Virus record (IMG/VR): IMGVR_UViG_3300029959_000004
Span: 45,386-109,385 of that record
Length of the DNA stretch: 64,000 nt
Strand: one strand, 5' to 3'
From: a virus
A program made the position numbers and the translations under genes. Shown here one piece after another: positions 24,146 through 45,755 of the stretch. Below the pieces are notes generated by a model. It did not search any database. It was given only the letters and a program-made list of their open reading frames with translations, and had not been told where the DNA came from. How positions within the stretch are numbered: position 1 is the stretch's first letter; each line of letters starts with the position of its first letter.

Positions 24146-24505
24146 GTGGATATAATATCTTCAGTGCGAAAACTAGCAAAGTCTGATTATTATCAGAACG
24201 TCTATACTCTTGCTAAAGAAAGAAGTTATTTTCGTATTTTTAAGAATGAAGATAACTTTACTGACTTGCAGATAACATTCTTAAAGTATCTTAATTTTTA
24301 CAACACTATATTTACTGATATAGCCTTAGGAGACGTTACTGAAATAGTTTTAAATGATTTTATGTATGAAGATGCTTATATAATGTATAAAAATAAAACA
24401 GATACTAATAAACTGAAAGAGAATAAAAATAATGATAATAAGAAAGTTCCTGTTTCTGGTTCTAGGTGGATATTTAAAAATCCTCCTAAAGCAGGGAAAA
24501 AATAA
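24146..24505 (+). CDS. Second tail chaperone-like protein
   Basis: Immediately before the tape measure. Confidence 0.5.
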   Translation: MDIISSVRKLAKSDYYQNVYTLAKERSYFRIFKNEDNFTDLQITFLKYLNFYNTIFTDIALGDVTEIVLNDFMYEDAYIMYKNKTDTNKLKENKNNDNKKVPVSGSRWIFKNPPKAGKK

Positions 24506-27500
24506 TGGGCGACGAAAAACAATATATATTTAGAATAGTATCCGAGACTCAGGGAATTCAGAAGTCTATTCAAGATATGAAACAGTTAGAAGCGCAAGCA
24601 ACCAAAACTGCTTCTAATCTTCAAAGAACAATAATCGCTCCCTCTGGAAGATCAGCCACTGAGGAGATTGCTAGAAGAACTCCGGGATTTGCTCAAACGG
24701 CAGAACAGAAAAGAATGTTGCAAGGAATTTCTTCTCCCAAGATTATTATGCCTACAGGGGTGATAGGTGGAGGAGCTAGAAAAGAAGAATTTACTGGAGT
24801 TGCTGAATCTCTAGAAAAAGTTGAAAAATCAACTTCTAAAGCGAGAACAGGATTTCAGGATCTCACTGAAGAATTTAATAGAAGTAGGAAACACACGAAA
24901 GATTTAGGTAAAGAAACTAAAGGTTTAGATATGGATTTAGGGAAACTAGCATTACGTGCAGCTGTTACTATTCCTATATGGTTAGCATTACGTTCAGCTT
25001 TTATGGGAGTATTGACTACTATTACATCTGGTGCTAAATCTATTGTAGATATGGATAGAGAATTAGCTAGAATTAGAACAGTTACAGATGATGTAACTGA
25101 TATGACTGGATTTTTAGATGAATTAGGAACTACTGCAAGAAGAATGTCCACGGAGACGGGAGCTTCTGTAGAAGATATACTTCACGCTTTCTATGGATTT
25201 AAAGATGCTGGCTTATCTACAGAAGTAGCTATGGAAGGCATGAAAGTATCTGTTAAAGGCTCAATAGCTTTATTTGGTGATTTAAAAGAAACAGCCAAAA
25301 CTCTTACAGATATTTATGTTTTGATGGGAGATAAAATAGAGGGAGCGAGAACTCCTCAAGAACGTATGGAAAGAATTATGTCTTCCATAGCTGTTCTACA
25401 GAAAACTAATAAATTTGAATTAAATGAATATATAGAAGGTTTAAAGTCATTTGCAGCTTCCGCCGCTTCTAGTAATTTAACTCTAGATCAGATGACATTT
25501 ATGCTTGCTAAAACTAGTAACTTTATGCAAAGAGGTTCTACTGGTGGTACTCAGTTAGCCAGAGCTTTTAAAGAGTTATCTATTAACGCACAAAAATCTG
25601 GCTTATTGCTAGGGAAAGCCATAAATCTTGACAATGTAGATAAGTTTGATTTAATGTTGAGTATGATGGAAGAATTAAACACTCGTTTTACTCAAGGTAA
25701 AGACATAAGTCAAGAACTCTTTGATATATTTGGTATAAGAGCGGAAAAGTCAGTTGCAGCTTTTGTAGTTAGATTTAAAGATGTAGTGAAAGAATGGAAA
25801 AACTTTGAAAATTTATCTCCAGAAAGAAGAATGGAAATTCTTAATGATCAGTTTAATACAGCTACTTTAACTATAGAACGTCAAGTACAGAGATTACAAA
25901 AGATTAGAGAACAAATGGGAGCTAATTTTCTTGCTGGAATTATAGGTATTGATTTAACAAATACTAAAGACGCTGCTGAAGGATTGAAATTAATTAATGA
26001 TAGATTAAATGATATGATACCTACTTTAAACGCCGTAGGTAGTGCAATAAGACCTCTATTACTTCTTTTATCGACTTTGGTAGCTTTAAGAGAAGCAAAA
26101 GTATTTTTAAATTTCTTAAAGAAGACTCCAGTCACAGCAGGTGTTGTTGGAGGAGCAATTTTAGGTGGTACTATACTTTCTAAATTAGAAGAAGAAAGAA
26201 AAGCTTCTAAAAAGACTTCTCAGTCTGATCAATATAAAGCTTATCTAGCTTCGGGTGGTAAAATGGGTCCTGGTTTATATAGAGAAAATCTCACTTTTGG
26301 AAACAAAAAGGATATAGCAGGTATTGAGTTAGAACCCATAAAAATAATAAAGAAAGCAACCGAAGATACTCAAAAAATTATAAAAGAAACTAGAAATACA
26401 GAAGAAGATATAACTGGTTTTTATGATTATCAATCTATGATGTTAGAAAGAGGTAAAATTCTTGGCCAAGATCAGTTAGATATAGAAAGAAGAAGATTAG
26501 ATTTAATTATACAAAGTACTGATATAACAGAAAAAGATAAAACAGTACACGAACAAAAGTTAAAAATAATTCAATTAGAAAATGAAGAAGTAATTAAATA
26601 TTCTCAAAATATACAAACTTCTCTTAGTTCTTCTTTAAAGGATATAATGAGCGGTAAGGGAGGAAATATCTTTACCGCCTTTAACACGGCTATAGTAGAT
26701 AATTATAGAAATACAATGTCTGAAGGAGTTTCTAGTATCATTATGTCTACCGGTATTGGTGAAATGTTCGGTGGAGCTATGTCTAAACTAAAGGGTCAAT
26801 TAGGTGGAGTTAGAGGTATGATAGAAGCTGCTCATGAAACTGTATATGGACAAATAGTTAGAGGGCATAGAGATGGTTTATCTGGAACAAAAGCTATTTT
26901 ACCGGGAGTATCAGGAACTGCTTCTTCAAGTACAATAGCTGGAGCTTTATCTACAACTGGAGGTTTTTGGGCTGGATATACCGGAGCAGGTTATCAACCG
27001 GTAGCTGGTAATAATAGAAATGTCTGGGTTCCTGCTAGTAATTATGGGCAAAGAGGTTATAAACAATCTAGTTTGGGTTCTTATCAAAGAGGGCAAATGG
27101 CTTTAGGAGGAGCTCAATCTGCATTGACTGGATATTCAGCTTATCAGTCAGCTTCTCAAGGTGGTCTCGGAGTGGGAGGGTCTATTGCTAGCGGATTATT
27201 AGCAGCAGGTGGGAGTTTTGCTGGAGTAATGTCTGGTATAGCGATGGCTTCAGGAACAGCAGCTACGGCAACCTCTGCCGCTACTACTGGTACCGCTAGT
27301 GTATTGGGTCTTTCTATGGGACCTGTTGGTTGGGCTATGATGGGAGTAGGGTTAATGATAGCTGCAATGATACCAAGTTTATTAGGTGGAGAAGAAAAAA
27401 CTTCTACAGAAACTAAAACAACTGAAAATAAAATATCTTCTAGAATAGATGTAACAAATAAGAATTTAGAGATAATTAATAGAAATTTAATAGGATTAAG

Positions 27501-27606
27501 AACGGATATACGTACATATATATTGCCAAGTTCTGCTTATTTTAGTTCTAAGACTAGTCTTGATGAAGAATTCTCTATAGCTTCTAGAATGGCTTCAATA
27601 GAATAA
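24505..27606 (+). CDS. Tape measure protein
   Basis: TP901-type core (DMDRELARI...GSTGGTQLARAF), helical, Gly/Ala-rich hydrophobic C-terminus. Confidence 0.9.
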   Translation: MGDEKQYIFRIVSETQGIQKSIQDMKQLEAQATKTASNLQRTIIAPSGRSATEEIARRTPGFAQTAEQKRMLQGISSPKIIMPTGVIGGGARKEEFTGVAESLEKVEKSTSKARTGFQDLTEEFNRSRKHTKDLGKETKGLDMDLGKLALRAAVTIPIWLALRSAFMGVLTTITSGAKSIVDMDRELARIRTVTDDVTDMTGFLDELGTTARRMSTETGASVEDILHAFYGFKDAGLSTEVAMEGMKVSVKGSIALFGDLKETAKTLTDIYVLMGDKIEGARTPQERMERIMSSIAVLQKTNKFELNEYIEGLKSFAASAASSNLTLDQMTFMLAKTSNFMQRGSTGGTQLARAFKELSINAQKSGLLLGKAINLDNVDKFDLMLSMMEELNTRFTQGKDISQELFDIFGIRAEKSVAAFVVRFKDVVKEWKNFENLSPERRMEILNDQFNTATLTIERQVQRLQKIREQMGANFLAGIIGIDLTNTKDAAEGLKLINDRLNDMIPTLNAVGSAIRPLLLLLSTLVALREAKVFLNFLKKTPVTAGVVGGAILGGTILSKLEEERKASKKTSQSDQYKAYLASGGKMGPGLYRENLTFGNKKDIAGIELEPIKIIKKATEDTQKIIKETRNTEEDITGFYDYQSMMLERGKILGQDQLDIERRRLDLIIQSTDITEKDKTVHEQKLKIIQLENEEVIKYSQNIQTSLSSSLKDIMSGKGGNIFTAFNTAIVDNYRNTMSEGVSSIIMSTGIGEMFGGAMSKLKGQLGGVRGMIEAAHETVYGQIVRGHRDGLSGTKAILPGVSGTASSSTIAGALSTTGGFWAGYTGAGYQPVAGNNRNVWVPASNYGQRGYKQSSLGSYQRGQMALGGAQSALTGYSAYQSASQGGLGVGGSIASGLLAAGGSFAGVMSGIAMASGTAATATSAATTGTASVLGLSMGPVGWAMMGVGLMIAAMIPSLLGGEEKTSTETKTTENKISSRIDVTNKNLEIINRNLIGLRTDIRTYILPSSAYFSSKTSLDEEFSIASRMASIE

Positions 27607-28009: not shown

Positions 28010-29812
28010 ATGTCTAAAGAAGATTTATTACCAGCTACAATACAAAATCAACTAAATAATGCTGATGTGAAGATGAAGTTTATTCTAAAGATTGATAGTG
28101 TAGATTATTCTAATTATTTAATAAGTTGGTCTGTAAGTAGCGATGTTAATTTCGGCTCCATGTCAGCAACTTTTGTGTTAAATAACGATGCAAATATATT
28201 TGGAGATAATGGCAGTAGCAAAATAGAAGTTGGAGACATTATAGAATTTAACGAACTTTTTGAAGGTTCTACTAAAGAATTCAAAAAATTTTATGGACAA
28301 GTAAATCAACGTTCTTATGTTGAAACGGGAACAGATAGAAATGTAAGCATAGTTGGTCTTGATTTTATTTCTTCTTTACAATTTTTAGATATAGATTTGG
28401 AGGTTGAAGGAACTAAAATAAAGGTGGAAGAGGAAATATTAACACCGAATTATCTATCTTCTCCAAACGATACATTGGCACAAGTATTTAATTTTGCAAA
28501 TGATGGAATAGCAGATAACCCATTACCTATTTTGACTATTAGAAATAAAAATACTGATGTTGAAGACCCACAGTGGGATGGTTATGAAATTATGTATGAA
28601 AACGGACAGGTTAAGTTAGGTAGTTGCTTAAACGCTAAAGATAATTATGATTTAGTAGCTACATCATATTATTTTTATGTAAAAGGTGTTTATGCAGAAG
28701 ACATAATAGAAGAAATACTTACTGAAGTAGATGGCTATGGTAAATATCTCTTTAATGAGTCTAACGCTCAAGCAGTTATAGATAATCATCTAACAACAAC
28801 ATTTTATGATGAAACAGGTACTAATACTGATACGATGGTTCCTAACTATACTCAAACTGAGATAACTATTTATCATCAATTATCTGCTAGTATTAGTGCG
28901 GGAACTACAAGTATAACACTAGATTCCGTAGAAGGACTACCTGATTCTGGAGAAGGTAATATCAATGGAGACATCTTTACTTGGACTTCAATATCTGGAA
29001 ATACTTTATCGGGAATATCTACTAGTGGAAGTTACGCTTTAAAAGCTCATACTAAAGACAGTTATTTTGAATATACTCATACTTATTCTGCCGGGCAGGT
29101 ATGGTATTTAACTTATAGTAATATTCAGAGTAGTTTAATGAATAGTCATTTTACAATACCTTCAGGTACACTTGAATATTTTGACGCTAGATACGGAAGA
29201 ATAATTTTAAGTGTGGCATTGTCAACTACAAGTACAGTTACTTGTAATATTAATTATAGATTTAAAACGTTGCAAGCTTCGGGAATAGAATTAAATAGAA
29301 TAGTTTTTCGTTCTAGAGAGGTGGAGAATAGATATGAAGCTATAAAGAAGGTTCGTGAATATTTAGCTCCCAACTATTTAGTGAGAACTAAAGGTGATAA
29401 TAAAATATGGTCTAGTTATTTTTCACAGAAAGTAAACGAAGATTATACTCTTAAATTAGCTACATCTATGACTTTTATGGAAGATGAAGATTTATATACT
29501 AGAGTGATGTTTTTTGGGAAGAATAAAAACCCGACTAATTTAATGTATAATGATGGAGTTACTTTTGTAGGAACTGGTGAATCTTATAAAGCTACAGCTA
29601 CAGCGTCGGAACTTACTAATTTAAGAGAAGATGGTAACTATTATGTCTACGGTTCTCCTGTTTCCGGTGTAGGAGCTATAACAGTAGAAACTATTAAACC
29701 TATTGTATATATAAATGAAGTCGCTATAGACAATACTTCTCATTTAGTTGCTGGGCAATCGGTTGTTTTAGAGATAACTACAACTACAGAAACTAAGTCG
29801 GGGGGTAAATGA
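28010..29812 (+). CDS. Tail-tip/hub protein, N-terminal part
   Basis: Hub-like motifs (SATFVLNN, IEVGDII, KKFYGQV, LYTRVMFFG); ends ...TTTTETKSGGK. Confidence 0.65.
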   Translation: MSKEDLLPATIQNQLNNADVKMKFILKIDSVDYSNYLISWSVSSDVNFGSMSATFVLNNDANIFGDNGSSKIEVGDIIEFNELFEGSTKEFKKFYGQVNQRSYVETGTDRNVSIVGLDFISSLQFLDIDLEVEGTKIKVEEEILTPNYLSSPNDTLAQVFNFANDGIADNPLPILTIRNKNTDVEDPQWDGYEIMYENGQVKLGSCLNAKDNYDLVATSYYFYVKGVYAEDIIEEILTEVDGYGKYLFNESNAQAVIDNHLTTTFYDETGTNTDTMVPNYTQTEITIYHQLSASISAGTTSITLDSVEGLPDSGEGNINGDIFTWTSISGNTLSGISTSGSYALKAHTKDSYFEYTHTYSAGQVWYLTYSNIQSSLMNSHFTIPSGTLEYFDARYGRIILSVALSTTSTVTCNINYRFKTLQASGIELNRIVFRSREVENRYEAIKKVREYLAPNYLVRTKGDNKIWSSYFSQKVNEDYTLKLATSMTFMEDEDLYTRVMFFGKNKNPTNLMYNDGVTFVGTGESYKATATASELTNLREDGNYYVYGSPVSGVGAITVETIKPIVYINEVAIDNTSHLVAGQSVVLEITTTTETKSGGK

Positions 29813-31392
29813 TTTTAATTATTTTATTATCTTTGTTATCTTGGAGTTATCTTTTAAGTCATTCACATAAACATCCTATACTTGGTGTTCCTAGAGAAAT
29901 AAGAGGAGGCGGTGGGGGGGAAGTATCCTCTCACACTTACTATTATTATCGTATAAAGATGCCTCATACGAGTTTAGATCCTTCTAAGTCAATTATTTTT
30001 TACGACGCTTATGGAGTAGAGATTTACACGTTAGCACCGTACAGTGAATATATGGATTACGGTATGGGTATTGTAAACGTGCCTGGTTCCGAAAAAAATC
30101 TTACTGTAGAAAGTATTGCTACAGCTACTTATTATGTATTCTATTCTACTGATAATATAATTATTGATTATGAGAAAGCGGAATTTAAAATAGCTAAAAA
30201 ATTAATAAAAGTACCAGCTCAAGCTGTTGTAAAAGCTACTTATCAGTATTACAGTGTTGTGACTATTTTCACAGACGTAGCCTCGGTAATAGACGGAAGA
30301 TACGATACTCAAGTTCAAACTATATTTTATGGAGAACCACCGACTGGATATAACTATGCGATTATAGACTTAGGAGCTGTTAAAACAATTCAGGCTTTAG
30401 ATATACTAACTGGTTTTTTTAAACCAGATGAAAACAGAAAATTTAATGTTAATTTTAAAGCAACTATACAATATTCTCTAAACGGAACAGATTATTATGA
30501 TATTTCTGACAAAACAAATACTTTCTCTTTAAGTGGTGGTGAATCTAAGAGTTTTGAAGAAGAAGATTTGGGAGTAGGTTTTACTGCTAGATATTTAAAA
30601 CTTCTTTTAGAAAATGTAGATAAAATAGAATATTCTTCTACTAAAGTTACTGTTAGTGATACTAATAGACAACAATTAATAGATTATGGAACTATAGATA
30701 GTGATACAGATAACGGAACAATAGTAACCATTCAGTCTGGCGTATGGGTAGTTGCTCTAACAGAAATATCCGCCTTTGATAACATTGTAATGAAATCTGA
30801 AGCTAAATTAATACCGAGAACTTTACTATCTCAAGCTATAAGTATAGAATCTGGAGATGTTTCTGGTAGTTATCCAACTACAGTAAATGTAGATTCTACC
30901 ACTGGATTTGATGATGTAGAGTCTGGTTACACATACAAAACAGCTTATATATTAAATGATGATGGAACATATGATGCTTTTACTTATACAGGATTAACAG
31001 CAACTTCATTTACTGGAGTAACTGGTTTAGCTGAATCTCATTCTGTAGATGATGCAGTTGTTCAGGAAATAGCTGGTGACACTACAATTTATGATTATAA
31101 TACTTTAAGACCTAAACTGGGAGATAGATTATATAAAGCTAATAAAGTAGATGATAATACTTTATATAGTCAATCACAATTAGATTATGTAGCTAAGGAG
31201 TATTTAAAAGAATTTGTTAAGAATCACACTAAGATACAAGTCGAAGTATTATATTCTCCTCATTTAAACGTAGGAGATACTATTAGAGTAATTGATTCTT
31301 TTTCAGGTATAGATCGTAACTACTTTATAGAAAGTATAAAAGATAGTAACGGGTTTTACACTTTAGTGTTAAGTTATTATCCCTCTTCATAA
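29809..31392 (+). CDS. Tail-tip/hub protein, C-terminal part, with discoidin-like domain and hydrophobic leader
   Basis: IIDLGAVKTI...IQYSLNGTDY...TARYLKL (F5/8-like) and PHLNVGDTIRV hub C-terminus; ATGA-coupled. Confidence 0.65.
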   Translation: MILIILLSLLSWSYLLSHSHKHPILGVPREIRGGGGGEVSSHTYYYYRIKMPHTSLDPSKSIIFYDAYGVEIYTLAPYSEYMDYGMGIVNVPGSEKNLTVESIATATYYVFYSTDNIIIDYEKAEFKIAKKLIKVPAQAVVKATYQYYSVVTIFTDVASVIDGRYDTQVQTIFYGEPPTGYNYAIIDLGAVKTIQALDILTGFFKPDENRKFNVNFKATIQYSLNGTDYYDISDKTNTFSLSGGESKSFEEEDLGVGFTARYLKLLLENVDKIEYSSTKVTVSDTNRQQLIDYGTIDSDTDNGTIVTIQSGVWVVALTEISAFDNIVMKSEAKLIPRTLLSQAISIESGDVSGSYPTTVNVDSTTGFDDVESGYTYKTAYILNDDGTYDAFTYTGLTATSFTGVTGLAESHSVDDAVVQEIAGDTTIYDYNTLRPKLGDRLYKANKVDDNTLYSQSQLDYVAKEYLKEFVKNHTKIQVEVLYSPHLNVGDTIRVIDSFSGIDRNYFIESIKDSNGFYTLVLSYYPSS

Positions 31393-31405: not shown

Positions 31406-31906
31406 ATGAAACCTTTAACAAATGATTTAAAAATTAAAATAGAAACTGCTATTAAAAATAAAATAGATATTTCTAATCTTATAGAAGATGTAGATTTAAG
31501 AAATCTCAATCTATCTAGAGCTATTATAAAGAAATTAAATATAAGAAATAGAGATATATCTGGATGTAATTTCAGTAACACTATTCTTGGTGATCCAGAA
31601 GTTAAATTATCGGTTTCTTTTATTGATTGTAAGATGCAACATTGTAATTTTGAAGGAGCTAATTTTATAGGTATTTCTTGGATTAGAAGTTGCGACGCAC
31701 AATTTTGTAATTTTAGTAATGCTGATGTGAGTAAAATATCTTATGCTAATACTAACTTTCTTGGGTCTAGATTTTGTGAAGCTATAATACGTATTGGAAC
31801 TAAAGAGGGTTTAAATTGTAAATTCCCAATAGAGATGTTTGAAAATCTTACACGTGGTTGGGGAATGAAATTAAAAGCGGAATATAATAACGAAACACAA
31901 GTATGA
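31406..31906 (+). CDS. Pentapeptide-repeat protein
   Basis: VDLRN LNLSR...CNFSN...CNFEG ANFIG...CNFSN ADVSK...TNFLG SRFCE. Confidence 0.8.
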   Translation: MKPLTNDLKIKIETAIKNKIDISNLIEDVDLRNLNLSRAIIKKLNIRNRDISGCNFSNTILGDPEVKLSVSFIDCKMQHCNFEGANFIGISWIRSCDAQFCNFSNADVSKISYANTNFLGSRFCEAIIRIGTKEGLNCKFPIEMFENLTRGWGMKLKAEYNNETQV

Positions 31907-41205: not shown

Positions 41206-41793
41206 ATGGCTACTTTAGAAATAGATAAAATGGAATACTCCTCCGACGCCAATGCAAGTGGATTTCAGAAAGGTCATAAACCTTATGGTGGAGCTATTAA
41301 AGGTAGATTAAAAGGACAGATTCCCCATAATAAGGGAACATCTGTTTGGTTGGAATATCAATGCCAAGAATGTAGTAATAGTTTTAAGATTAGAAAGTGT
41401 CATAGTGAGAGAGATAGGGGAAAATATTGTAGTCGTAAATGTTATGTTAAAGCACAAACTATTTATAAACTTTCTCCCACAGAAAGATTTGTTCATCGGT
41501 TTAGACAATTAGAAGAATATGCTGTATGGCGGATGGATTGTTTAAAAAGGGATTGGTTTAAGTGTCAAGAGTGTGCTACCAAAGAGAATTTAGAAGTTCA
41601 TCATATAAAATCATTTACGGAATTAGTTATAGAGTTTTTACAAGAATATAATCAATTTAGTCCAATTGATGATACCGAGATATTATTACGATTAGCTGTT
41701 AATTATAAACCTTTCTGGGATATAAATAATGGAAAAACTTATTGCGAATCGCATCATAAATCATTGAGGAGAATATACAATGGCAACACTTGA
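41206..41793 (+). CDS. HNH homing endonuclease carrying a copy of the neighbour's N-terminus
   Basis: GFQKGH..HNKG, CQEC..YCSRKC, RDWFKCQEC...LEVHHI...NGKTYCESHH. Confidence 0.88.
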   Translation: MATLEIDKMEYSSDANASGFQKGHKPYGGAIKGRLKGQIPHNKGTSVWLEYQCQECSNSFKIRKCHSERDRGKYCSRKCYVKAQTIYKLSPTERFVHRFRQLEEYAVWRMDCLKRDWFKCQECATKENLEVHHIKSFTELVIEFLQEYNQFSPIDDTEILLRLAVNYKPFWDINNGKTYCESHHKSLRRIYNGNT

Positions 41794-44936: not shown

Positions 44937-45755
44937 TTATGAACTAGTTGAGCAACCGTAAAAGTCACATTTTGAACACAAAACACTAGAATTTCTGTTT
45001 CCTTTTATGTGTTCTTTGAGTAAATCTAATCTTTTATTACTATTCCAAGCTTCTTCTAATGTCATATCTTTAATATTACCGAGTTTATTTATTTTAGTTG
45101 GATCAAATCTTACACAAGGAAATATATCACCGAATCTATCTATAACTAAATGTGTATATAAATCTTGACAAAAACCAACTTCTGGGATTGTTACTTTCTT
45201 AGTGTAACCAAAACTTCCTTCGGGTTTATGAAGTATTCTTGTAGCTATAATACAATTGTGAACTTTTGCTAATGTTTCCCACTTTTCCTTGTTTTCTACA
45301 TTACCCAATAATCTAAATATAACAAGTGGAGATTTTTGGAAATCTTTATTCATTAAAAATTCAAAAACTGTTGTAAGTTGTTTATCTCCTTCAGGATCAT
45401 TTTCTATCACTGAAATAGTTAACGTATTTAAATTTTCTTTTATAGCTTCTCTAATTTCTGTTCTTGCTAATAGTTTACCATTAGTATTTAAACATTTTAT
45501 ATTATTTGGAAATAACTTCAAAGCATCTGAGAATCTAGGATAGAGTAACGGTTCTCCATTACTATGAAATTGAATAATGATTTCTTTAGGGATTTGTATA
45601 GTTATTTTCTCCAACAATTCGAAATCCATATATCCAAAATTACAAAGTTCAGGATGCTCTTTTTCTAAACGTCTACGACCGCACATCCAACAGCTTTTAT
45701 TACATTCAGAACTGATTTCTATATTCACTACACTTAATCCATTTAGATTACTCAT
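44937..45755 (-). CDS. Radical SAM protein with SPASM/twitch domain
   Basis: CNKSCWMC, GEPLL, C-terminal C..GDIFPC..C..C. Confidence 0.9.
   Translation of the reverse strand: MSNLNGLSVVNIEISSECNKSCWMCGRRRLEKEHPELCNFGYMDFELLEKITIQIPKEIIIQFHSNGEPLLYPRFSDALKLFPNNIKCLNTNGKLLARTEIREAIKENLNTLTISVIENDPEGDKQLTTVFEFLMNKDFQKSPLVIFRLLGNVENKEKWETLAKVHNCIIATRILHKPEGSFGYTKKVTIPEVGFCQDLYTHLVIDRFGDIFPCVRFDPTKINKLGNIKDMTLEEAWNSNKRLDLLKEHIKGNRNSSVLCSKCDFYGCSTSS

Follow-up and report, generated by a model that had tools for sequence, protein, structure and literature searches.

A phage tail hub gene in two pieces: probable fission of a gp27/T5 pb3-type hub at the tip of a beta-hairpin

Phage DNA-metabolism enzymes supply most of the described cases of gene fission by homing endonucleases and inteins. 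Free-standing homing endonucleases leave genes in pieces, as in Aeh1, where nrdA is split by mobE, and in T4, where the topoisomerase genes 39 and 60 are associated with mobA (PMC2988022). In fractured genes, which are found mainly in phage loci, split intein halves flank the break and a free-standing endonuclease lies between them (Dassa et al., 2009; PMC2677866). In the hub protein pb3 of T5, hairpin 'legs' with a hydrophobic LFGL tip under basic residues anchor the opened hub in the outer membrane (bioRxiv 10.1101/2022.09.20.507954). The 64,000-nucleotide stretch analyzed here (the window; positions 45,386–109,385 of the IMG/VR virus record IMGVR_UViG_3300029959_000004) contains two overlapping plus-strand open reading frames (ORFs), gene 1 (28010–29812) and gene 2 (29809–31392), which probably encode one tail (baseplate) hub of the gp27/T5 pb3 type, broken in two at the tip of a beta-hairpin. 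As in the Aeh1 and T4 cases, an essential phage gene is broken at one point into two ORFs where relatives have a single one; unlike those cases, the gene encodes a structural tail hub and the cut lies in a beta-hairpin loop. Many states of this fission are preserved in environmental phages, including an intact loop, a Hint insert of the cleaving type, an endonuclease gene between the halves, and an endonuclease-free split with or without a leader.

Gene 1 encodes the N-terminal half of the hub (600 aa), and gene 2 encodes the C-terminal half preceded by an N-terminal leader (527 aa in total). Gene 1 was searched against 1.8 billion cluster representatives. Of the 148 relatives obtained, most are single proteins of 1045–1440 aa that cover residues 1–600 and extend beyond them. 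When the junction flanks were used as anchors to sort the representatives, 33 with both flanks read through the site with loops of 5–20 residues (for example, ...TITEGGGKSKSVSV-HTYYYY and ...TETKSGCHGISKESYTKI-HTYFYY), and two with both flanks carried an in-frame Hint insert of ~150 aa; 12 others terminate at ...GG(G)K or a similar Lys end, and one ends in a CFI-box. The fused form is present in 39 of 64 loci. These counts show that a single ORF of ~1050 aa is the majority form among relatives. No Pfam or PHROG family was found for gene 1 or gene 2, save for a sub-threshold F5/8-C match, and tblastn with either half gave no match in the INPHARED phages. The sub-threshold match (PF00754; E 3.6e-4) marks a CBM32/F5-F8 type C-like domain at gene 2 residues 158–269 (30280–30615, plus strand), for which CBM32 structures give Z ~11.

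The fold was examined in an AlphaFold2 (AF2) model of the fused homologue P0090 (1070 aa; 53% identical to gene 1; predicted local distance difference test [pLDDT] score 82.8). Hubs of the gp27/T5 pb3 class have tube-like domains, HDI and HDIV, with further domains inserted, and close the tail tube as a trimer. Structure comparison assigns this model to the hub fold: gp27, Mu gp44, VgrG and contractile injection system hubs match at Z 17–20, the individual matches including 9gtr_q (Z 20.1; root-mean-square deviation 3.8 over 319 aligned residues), Mu gp44 (1wru; Z 18.5), T4 gp27 (1k28_D; Z 16.7) and T5 pb3 (7zhj/7zqp; Z 13.4–14.3). Because the alignments span model residues 12–1070, the hub fold needs both halves, in agreement with the proposal of a first-pass annotation of this DNA that the two ORFs are complementary halves of a hub. 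In the model, a strand (residues 589–601), a low-confidence loop (602–610) and a second strand (611–623) form a hairpin, and the loop is the split site. The first-pass annotation had placed the break at a GGK|GGGG loop and had likened the joined sequence to a Thr-rich GGKGG hairpin that is unbroken in many tail-tip or host-specificity proteins. Single-ORF homologues exist, as described above, and the break does lie in the loop of a long Thr-rich hairpin; a continuous GGKGGGG is present in no unbroken homologue. The unbroken loops read GGGKSKSVS, SGCHGISKESYTKI, SGGKHPTTTT and alike, and the run of five Gly residues is specific to split or insert-bearing forms.

At the junction, gene 1 ends in ...VVLEITTTTETKSGGK (quoted at greater length, ...ITTTTETKSGGK; the last residues are TKSGGK), followed by TGA at 29810–29812. 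The N-terminus of gene 2 consists of the leader MILIILLSLLSWSYLLSHSHKHPILGVPREIR, then GGGGG and then EVSSHTYYYY. The stop and start codons overlap as ATGA (29809–29812), an arrangement for translational coupling, and the G run immediately upstream (29800–29805) is a Shine–Dalgarno (SD)-like element. Gene 2 lies in the −1 frame relative to gene 1, and deletion of the 95 nt from 29810 to 29904 would bring K600 into frame with G33. Re-reading of the sequence thus upholds the first-pass description of the gene ends, the overlap, the leader and the in-frame join, to which one detail can be added: a TAA (29806–29808) in the gene 2 frame, directly 5' of the gene 2 ATG, blocks a −1 frameshift fusion from G_GGG_GGT. 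GGT codons are present at 29804 and 29911, and AGAGGAGG (29902–29909) is simply the codons of R32-G33-G34. A contig of an independent groundwater run is identical across 29741–29978, and a relative from a landfill run spans 29500–29906 with four substitutions and no indels, arguing that the junction is not an assembly artefact. A stop/start at the same loop together with a hydrophobic leader recurs in nine further loci and in ~25 of 78 protein clusters, so the split architecture is more than chance.

Assembly of the two halves was assessed by complex prediction, using gene 1 residues 250–600 and the whole of gene 2, one copy each. The predicted complex scored 0.62, whereas none of three controls exceeded 0.00. 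Among solved complexes, 58 of 80 attain this mark, as do 2 of 110 mismatched pairs (counts that apply only approximately, our own alignments having been used), and part of the score may reflect a remembered fold, as single-chain gp27-like hubs have been solved. Contact agreement among the runs was at least 85%, and the partner pLDDT was at least 76. The model has ~560 contacts, with sheets common to both chains. Gene 1 residues 564–599 lie against gene 2 residues 37–53, with residue 586 opposite residue 50; these predicted contacts suggest that the hairpin is rebuilt in trans. Its first strand would be gene 1 residues 586–599 (29765–29806, plus strand), equivalent to strand 589–601 of the fused homologue, and its second strand gene 2 residues 37–53 (...EVSSHTYYYYRIK...; 29917–29967, plus strand), equivalent to strand 611–623. 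The HTYYYY of the second strand is conserved across the family. The two halves are therefore predicted to reassemble in trans, and the model favors the non-covalent form of the assembly that had been proposed for them. Leader residues 1–36 fall outside the confident interface.

These features suggest the following mechanism. One mRNA would carry both halves, and the gene 2 product would be made by termination–reinitiation at the ATGA. The two chains would fold together non-covalently by strand complementation, in which gene 1 residues ~586–599 and gene 2 residues ~37–50 reform the hairpin. The leader, a transmembrane (TM)-like helix on a basic linker and a tether of five Gly residues, would hang off the hairpin tip.

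The leader comprises 32 codons (29809–29904, plus strand), with a hydrophobic helix of ~17 aa, an invariant Trp and a basic linker ending in ...HKHPILGVPREIR; the Gly tether (G33–G37; 29905–29919, plus strand) follows. A Gly run precedes the hairpin strand in nearly all split or insert-bearing forms, but not in plain fused loops. In each of the 10 hydrophobic-leader loci, no stop codon interrupts the leader ORF between the coupling start and the Gly run, and its length differs among these loci by whole codons. The stop/start itself varies, being ATGA (−1 frame) in the window, L024 and L025, TAATG in L018 and L022, and TAA-GTG in the gene 1 frame in L001; the G-rich SD-like element before the start, which derives from the gene 1 Gly codons, is present in all forms. 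Third-position changes occur in the leader stretch S-H/Y-K-H/N-P-I, and one Trp is invariant across loci. In 16 of 25 clusters, leader residues 2–16 are free of D, E, K, R, N and Q, as are just 0.87% of 15-mers in the ORFs of this phage. The ratio of non-synonymous to synonymous substitution rates (dN/dS) is 0.3–0.8 in the leader, compared with 0.06–0.24 in the next 110 codons (the core). On these comparative grounds, the leader appears to be translated as a genuine N-terminal extension, its pattern fits a TM-like hydrophobic helix, and it is probably selected to stay hydrophobic despite fast amino-acid change. A gene 2 start at Met51 was considered and rejected, since residues 38–50 form the conserved hairpin strand and most homologues have a residue other than Met at position 51.

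Features of a Sec or lipoprotein signal were not seen when the leader was read by eye: there is no positive n-region, AXA site or lipobox. The N-terminus M-I-L-I-I is uncharged, the basic residues follow the helix, E and R occupy positions −3 and −1, and Cys is absent. A scan for promoters and terminators gave nothing meaningful within the leader. In the ESM Atlas, the leader alone matched only generic N-terminal single helices of membrane-anchored proteins, a weak lead. In some unbroken relatives the loop tip is itself aromatic-hydrophobic (e.g., ...TTGFLFWQR... in L058).

The junction was surveyed in 95 loci (IMG/VR and JGI metagenomes) and 78 protein clusters. The majority of relatives have the continuous ORF (state 1). 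In state 2 (L053, L067, L023, P0086 and P0087), an in-frame Hint insert follows the Lys and is itself followed by Gly. In L053 the insert has the form of a canonical mini-intein (K|CFVAGT...ILVHN|GGG) and matches both Hint and Intein_splicing; in the other four, Hint is followed by a Cys-rich tail of ~60 aa, which replaces His-Asn in L067, L023 and P0087, and then by GGGGG. In L053, L067 and L023, position 1 of the insert is Cys or Ser and the +1 residue is Gly. Two genes without a leader, ...GGGKF-stop and then MGGN..., constitute state 3 (L002, L019, L020, L014, L035–37 and L079), and two genes with a hydrophobic leader, as in the window, state 4 (L001/L017, L018, L021, L022, L024, L025, L028, L066 and ~25 protein clusters). 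In state 5 (L033 and L084), the second gene has a short leader that aligns to the tail of the Hint inserts.

Larger modules occupy the same site in other relatives. In state 6, the leader is a module of ~85 aa with an invariant HExxH...D..DN (L057, 866–1126; L029–L032; P0022, P0025, P0026, P0029, P0038 and P0056), which, in one subclade, begins the second hub half and ends right at the Gly run. Its AF2 model (pLDDT 76) is a small hairpin with two helices, for which no PDB match above Z 4.8 and no usable ESM Atlas match was found; it may be a mini-metallopeptidase. In state 7, the gene 1 half is extended right after GGGG by CFI-box-CTERM (NF041770; L079, 2095–2475, 4.6e-19; P0103, residues 606–678, 3.4e-14), which begins with Cys and lies at the exact site of the Hint domain in other relatives. 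Free-standing endonuclease genes lie between the halves in state 8: an HNH ORF of 218 aa in L021 (phrog_144, 4e-10) and one of 319 aa in L019, 60% identical to that of L021. The ORF between the halves of L032 (458 aa) has a zinc-ribbon and only a weak HNH PHROG match (phrog_8446, 2.5e-5). The survey shows the break point to be a hot spot for selfish elements, the loop of which is shared by the CFI-box and HExxH add-on modules. At the window junction there is no endonuclease gene and the halves overlap by the ATGA; the window shows the endonuclease-free state of a gene in pieces. Elsewhere in the window, an HNH ORF of 195 aa (41206–41793, plus strand; phrog_5956, 1e-6) has a nuclease domain 54% identical to the L021 HNH (E 7e-33), suggesting that the L021-type endonuclease family is active elsewhere in this phage.

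The first half of the hub gene also carries inserts in some relatives. P0086 has a LAGLIDADG/intein-splicing match at residues 334–532, inside the first half, and P0080–P0085 have 170–600 additional residues there, assigned to no family. These inserts suggest that the hub gene has been invaded at more than one site.

The gene 2 core of 64 loci was used to build a tree (quick maximum-likelihood search, midpoint root), which places all split or insert-bearing forms except L014 and L053 in one clade (SH-like approximate likelihood ratio test, SH-aLRT, 99) that contains no plain fused member. The hydrophobic-leader forms are scattered through this split clade. Leaderless L019 nests beside L001 and L018, and leaderless L002 and L020 nest beside the window; as these sister phages lie among leader-bearing ones, the leader would be dispensable for assembly. 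In L002 (3451–3575) and L020, TTTTAAT, the first seven bases of a leader like that of the window, is kept and is followed directly by the Gly codons, with an ATG formed at the junction. Loss of the leader in L002 might have been a deletion of ~90 nt that preserved the start codon, for which a 7-nt match in AT-rich DNA is only suggestive.

Several explanations would make the two ORFs one protein, or no functional protein. Homopolymer G runs flank the junction, as might be expected if the split were a sequencing or assembly error or a decaying pseudogene; this is nonetheless highly improbable given the identical junction in the independent run, the indel-free landfill relative, a depth of 371 in the probable source run, the same architecture in many divergent loci and, as judged from the core dN/dS of 0.06–0.24, strong purifying selection on both halves. 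The first-pass annotation had suggested that the ribosome bypasses the gap, as in T4 gene 60, with take-off at GGT 29804 and landing at GGT 29911 to yield one chain. The Gly codons do match on both sides, with AGGAGG just 5' of the putative landing site, but such codons are unavoidable given GGK and GGGGG, and the stop is not next to the take-off codon (the order is GGT, AAA, TGA). In every lineage the gap is occupied by a conserved, uninterrupted ORF that codes for hydrophobic residues and varies in length by whole codons; its frame relative to gene 1 varies (0 in L001, −1 in the window), the close relatives L002, L019 and L020 are split without a leader gap, and RNA 29780–29930 folds worse than 195 of 200 shuffles (z +1.95), with no stable take-off stem-loop. 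The conserved ORF, the variable frame, the gapless splits and the weakly folded RNA contradict the suggestion, and bypass has only a very slight chance of being correct. Editing or splicing of 29810–29904, −1 frameshifting or readthrough is the least probable route to a fused protein, with a near-negligible likelihood. Removal of the 95 nt restores the frame, and G_GGG_GGT is formally a slippery heptamer in the right phase; a −1 slip at 29800–29806, however, meets TAA 29806–29808 at once, and the change of frame defeats readthrough. At the junction, neither an Rfam family (E ≤ 1) nor a structure was found, and the endonuclease genes of 0.66–1.4 kb between the halves of relatives could not be rescued in this way. 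RNA editing, also put forward earlier, is without support and unnecessary.

A different possibility is that the leader is a pro-peptide cut near R32|G33, so that the mature second half starts with oligoglycine and might even become joined covalently, by ligation, to the Lys at the end of gene 1. N-terminal modules of widely differing kinds stop exactly at the Gly run, the conserved HExxH module among them, and the MGG... forms would expose Gly after removal of Met. The VHN|GGG of L053 is a canonical intein C-terminus, which would self-cleave by Asn cyclization, and type A bacterial intein-like (BIL) domains that have no +1 nucleophile mainly undergo cleavage, with ligation via the freed amine also possible (PMC4031507). 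Against these points, the residue before the Gly run is variable (R, Y, F, L, C, A or N), such that no single protease specificity fits, and the HExxH module has no recognizable protease fold. The lack of an AXA site, lipobox and positive n-region, and the implausibility of a 500-aa cytoplasmic tail protein as a Sec substrate, also speak against export-type processing; for ligation, gene 1 here has no thioester-forming module to activate its C-terminus, and hence there is no driving chemistry. As a leader that is immediately discarded has no obvious need of lasting hydrophobicity, retention is favored. Overall, we regard the pro-peptide as unlikely. Most likely, the leader stays attached as a membrane-contacting or assembly-tethering appendage, which we infer from its lasting hydrophobicity. 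Evasion of host ubiquitin-like conjugation by splitting of the Lys loop, another earlier speculation, finds no support: the Lys is kept as the C-terminal residue, and nothing links the host or the phage to Bil systems.

Some considerations weigh against a tail hub gene split at a mobile-element site and carrying a retained leader. The phage is uncultivated, and that the chains are separate, in what stoichiometry they occur and what becomes of the leader are predictions from sequence. The high dN/dS of the leader means that the constraint on it is weak and compositional. As the window junction has no endonuclease, its mobile-element origin is inferred from relatives, and either order of events would fit, a split first with an endonuclease settling in the gap, or an endonuclease or intein causing the split. 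The tree, moreover, comes from a quick search and is midpoint-rooted, and L014 and L053, outside the main clade, need independent events or lateral transfer of a junction cassette.

The chain break might be functional in the split clade rather than a scar, the mature hub requiring two free ends at the hairpin tip; we hold this only as a doubtful, speculative extension. Separate genes, a cleaving Hint domain with +1 Gly, the CFI-box, the HExxH module and the leader would then be alternative ways to make or use the break. The leader on its Gly tether would be a membrane-inserting tail-tip anchor, comparable to the hydrophobic hairpin legs in T5, or else a ligating or processing step would act on the oligoglycine exposed at the N-terminus. 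Whichever applies, the diversity of the junction among relatives of the split hub is the most intriguing part. The junction series is a natural data set on gene breakage and the continued function of the pieces, and a TM-like leader, a CFI-box and an HExxH module at one hairpin tip provide testable leads on contact between tail tip and membrane and on self-processing domains. For annotation, gene callers will list two 'hypothetical proteins' for the one hub.

The full virus record is 109,385 bp with direct terminal repeats and ~31% G+C; its source is groundwater metagenomes, and a relative occurs in landfill. The hub genes are in the tail module, in the order tape measure gene (24505–27606; phrog_28, 9.5e-29), an ORF of 129 aa, gene 1, gene 2 and fibre genes, which is a hub-type position downstream of the tape measure gene. 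Between the hub and a tail-tip fibre gene of 773 aa lies a gene for a pentapeptide-repeat protein of 166 aa (31406–31906, plus strand; PF00805, 3.4e-11), an unusual component of a tail module. Most structural genes of the record have no PHROG family. The 109-kb genome gave no match to the Pfam sheath family, and the phage may be either a myovirus or a siphovirus.

Comparison with the described systems places the split hub of the window closest to genes in pieces and fractured genes. In addition to the cut of a single gene into two ORFs, it shares with the Aeh1 and T4 cases the HNH genes at the split point of some relatives (L019 and L021), the stop/start overlaps (UAAUGA-like) that couple translation, and the expected non-covalent assembly. 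It differs in that the site in the window has no endonuclease, that a conserved hydrophobic leader and a Gly5 tether are present, and that relatives have Hint, CFI-box and HExxH modules there. With T4 gene 60 it shares a short insert that breaks the coding sequence near a mobile endonuclease site, with Gly codons on both sides; unlike that of gene 60, the insert here is translated as the start of the second protein, the frame relation is not conserved and there is no take-off stem-loop.

Like fractured genes, the locus has intein-like inserts at the same site in relatives; unlike them, it has no split-intein halves, and gene 1 stops at ...GGK, the extein Lys. The leader lacks intein block F/G, having no His-Asn, and ends in ...EIR before Gly, and neither ORF has a Hint or intein Pfam match. 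As split-intein halves are absent from the window, trans-splicing is not expected. The Hint inserts of relatives (L053, L067 and L023), with +1 Gly, resemble type A BIL domains (PMC4031507), and cleavage of such inserts would give the same two chains that the window encodes directly; these inserts are found in relatives only, not in the window, and their activity is putative. With T5 pb3, the split hub would share the fold class and, by analogy, a hairpin tip with a hydrophobic helix beside basic residues. In T5 the hairpin is part of the plug, within the HDII insertion (residues ~225–245), and may not be the equivalent element; the T5 chain is continuous. Overall, the locus differs from its precedents in being a tail hub, with no intein halves, no endonuclease at the split in this genome and a TM-like leader on a Gly tether.

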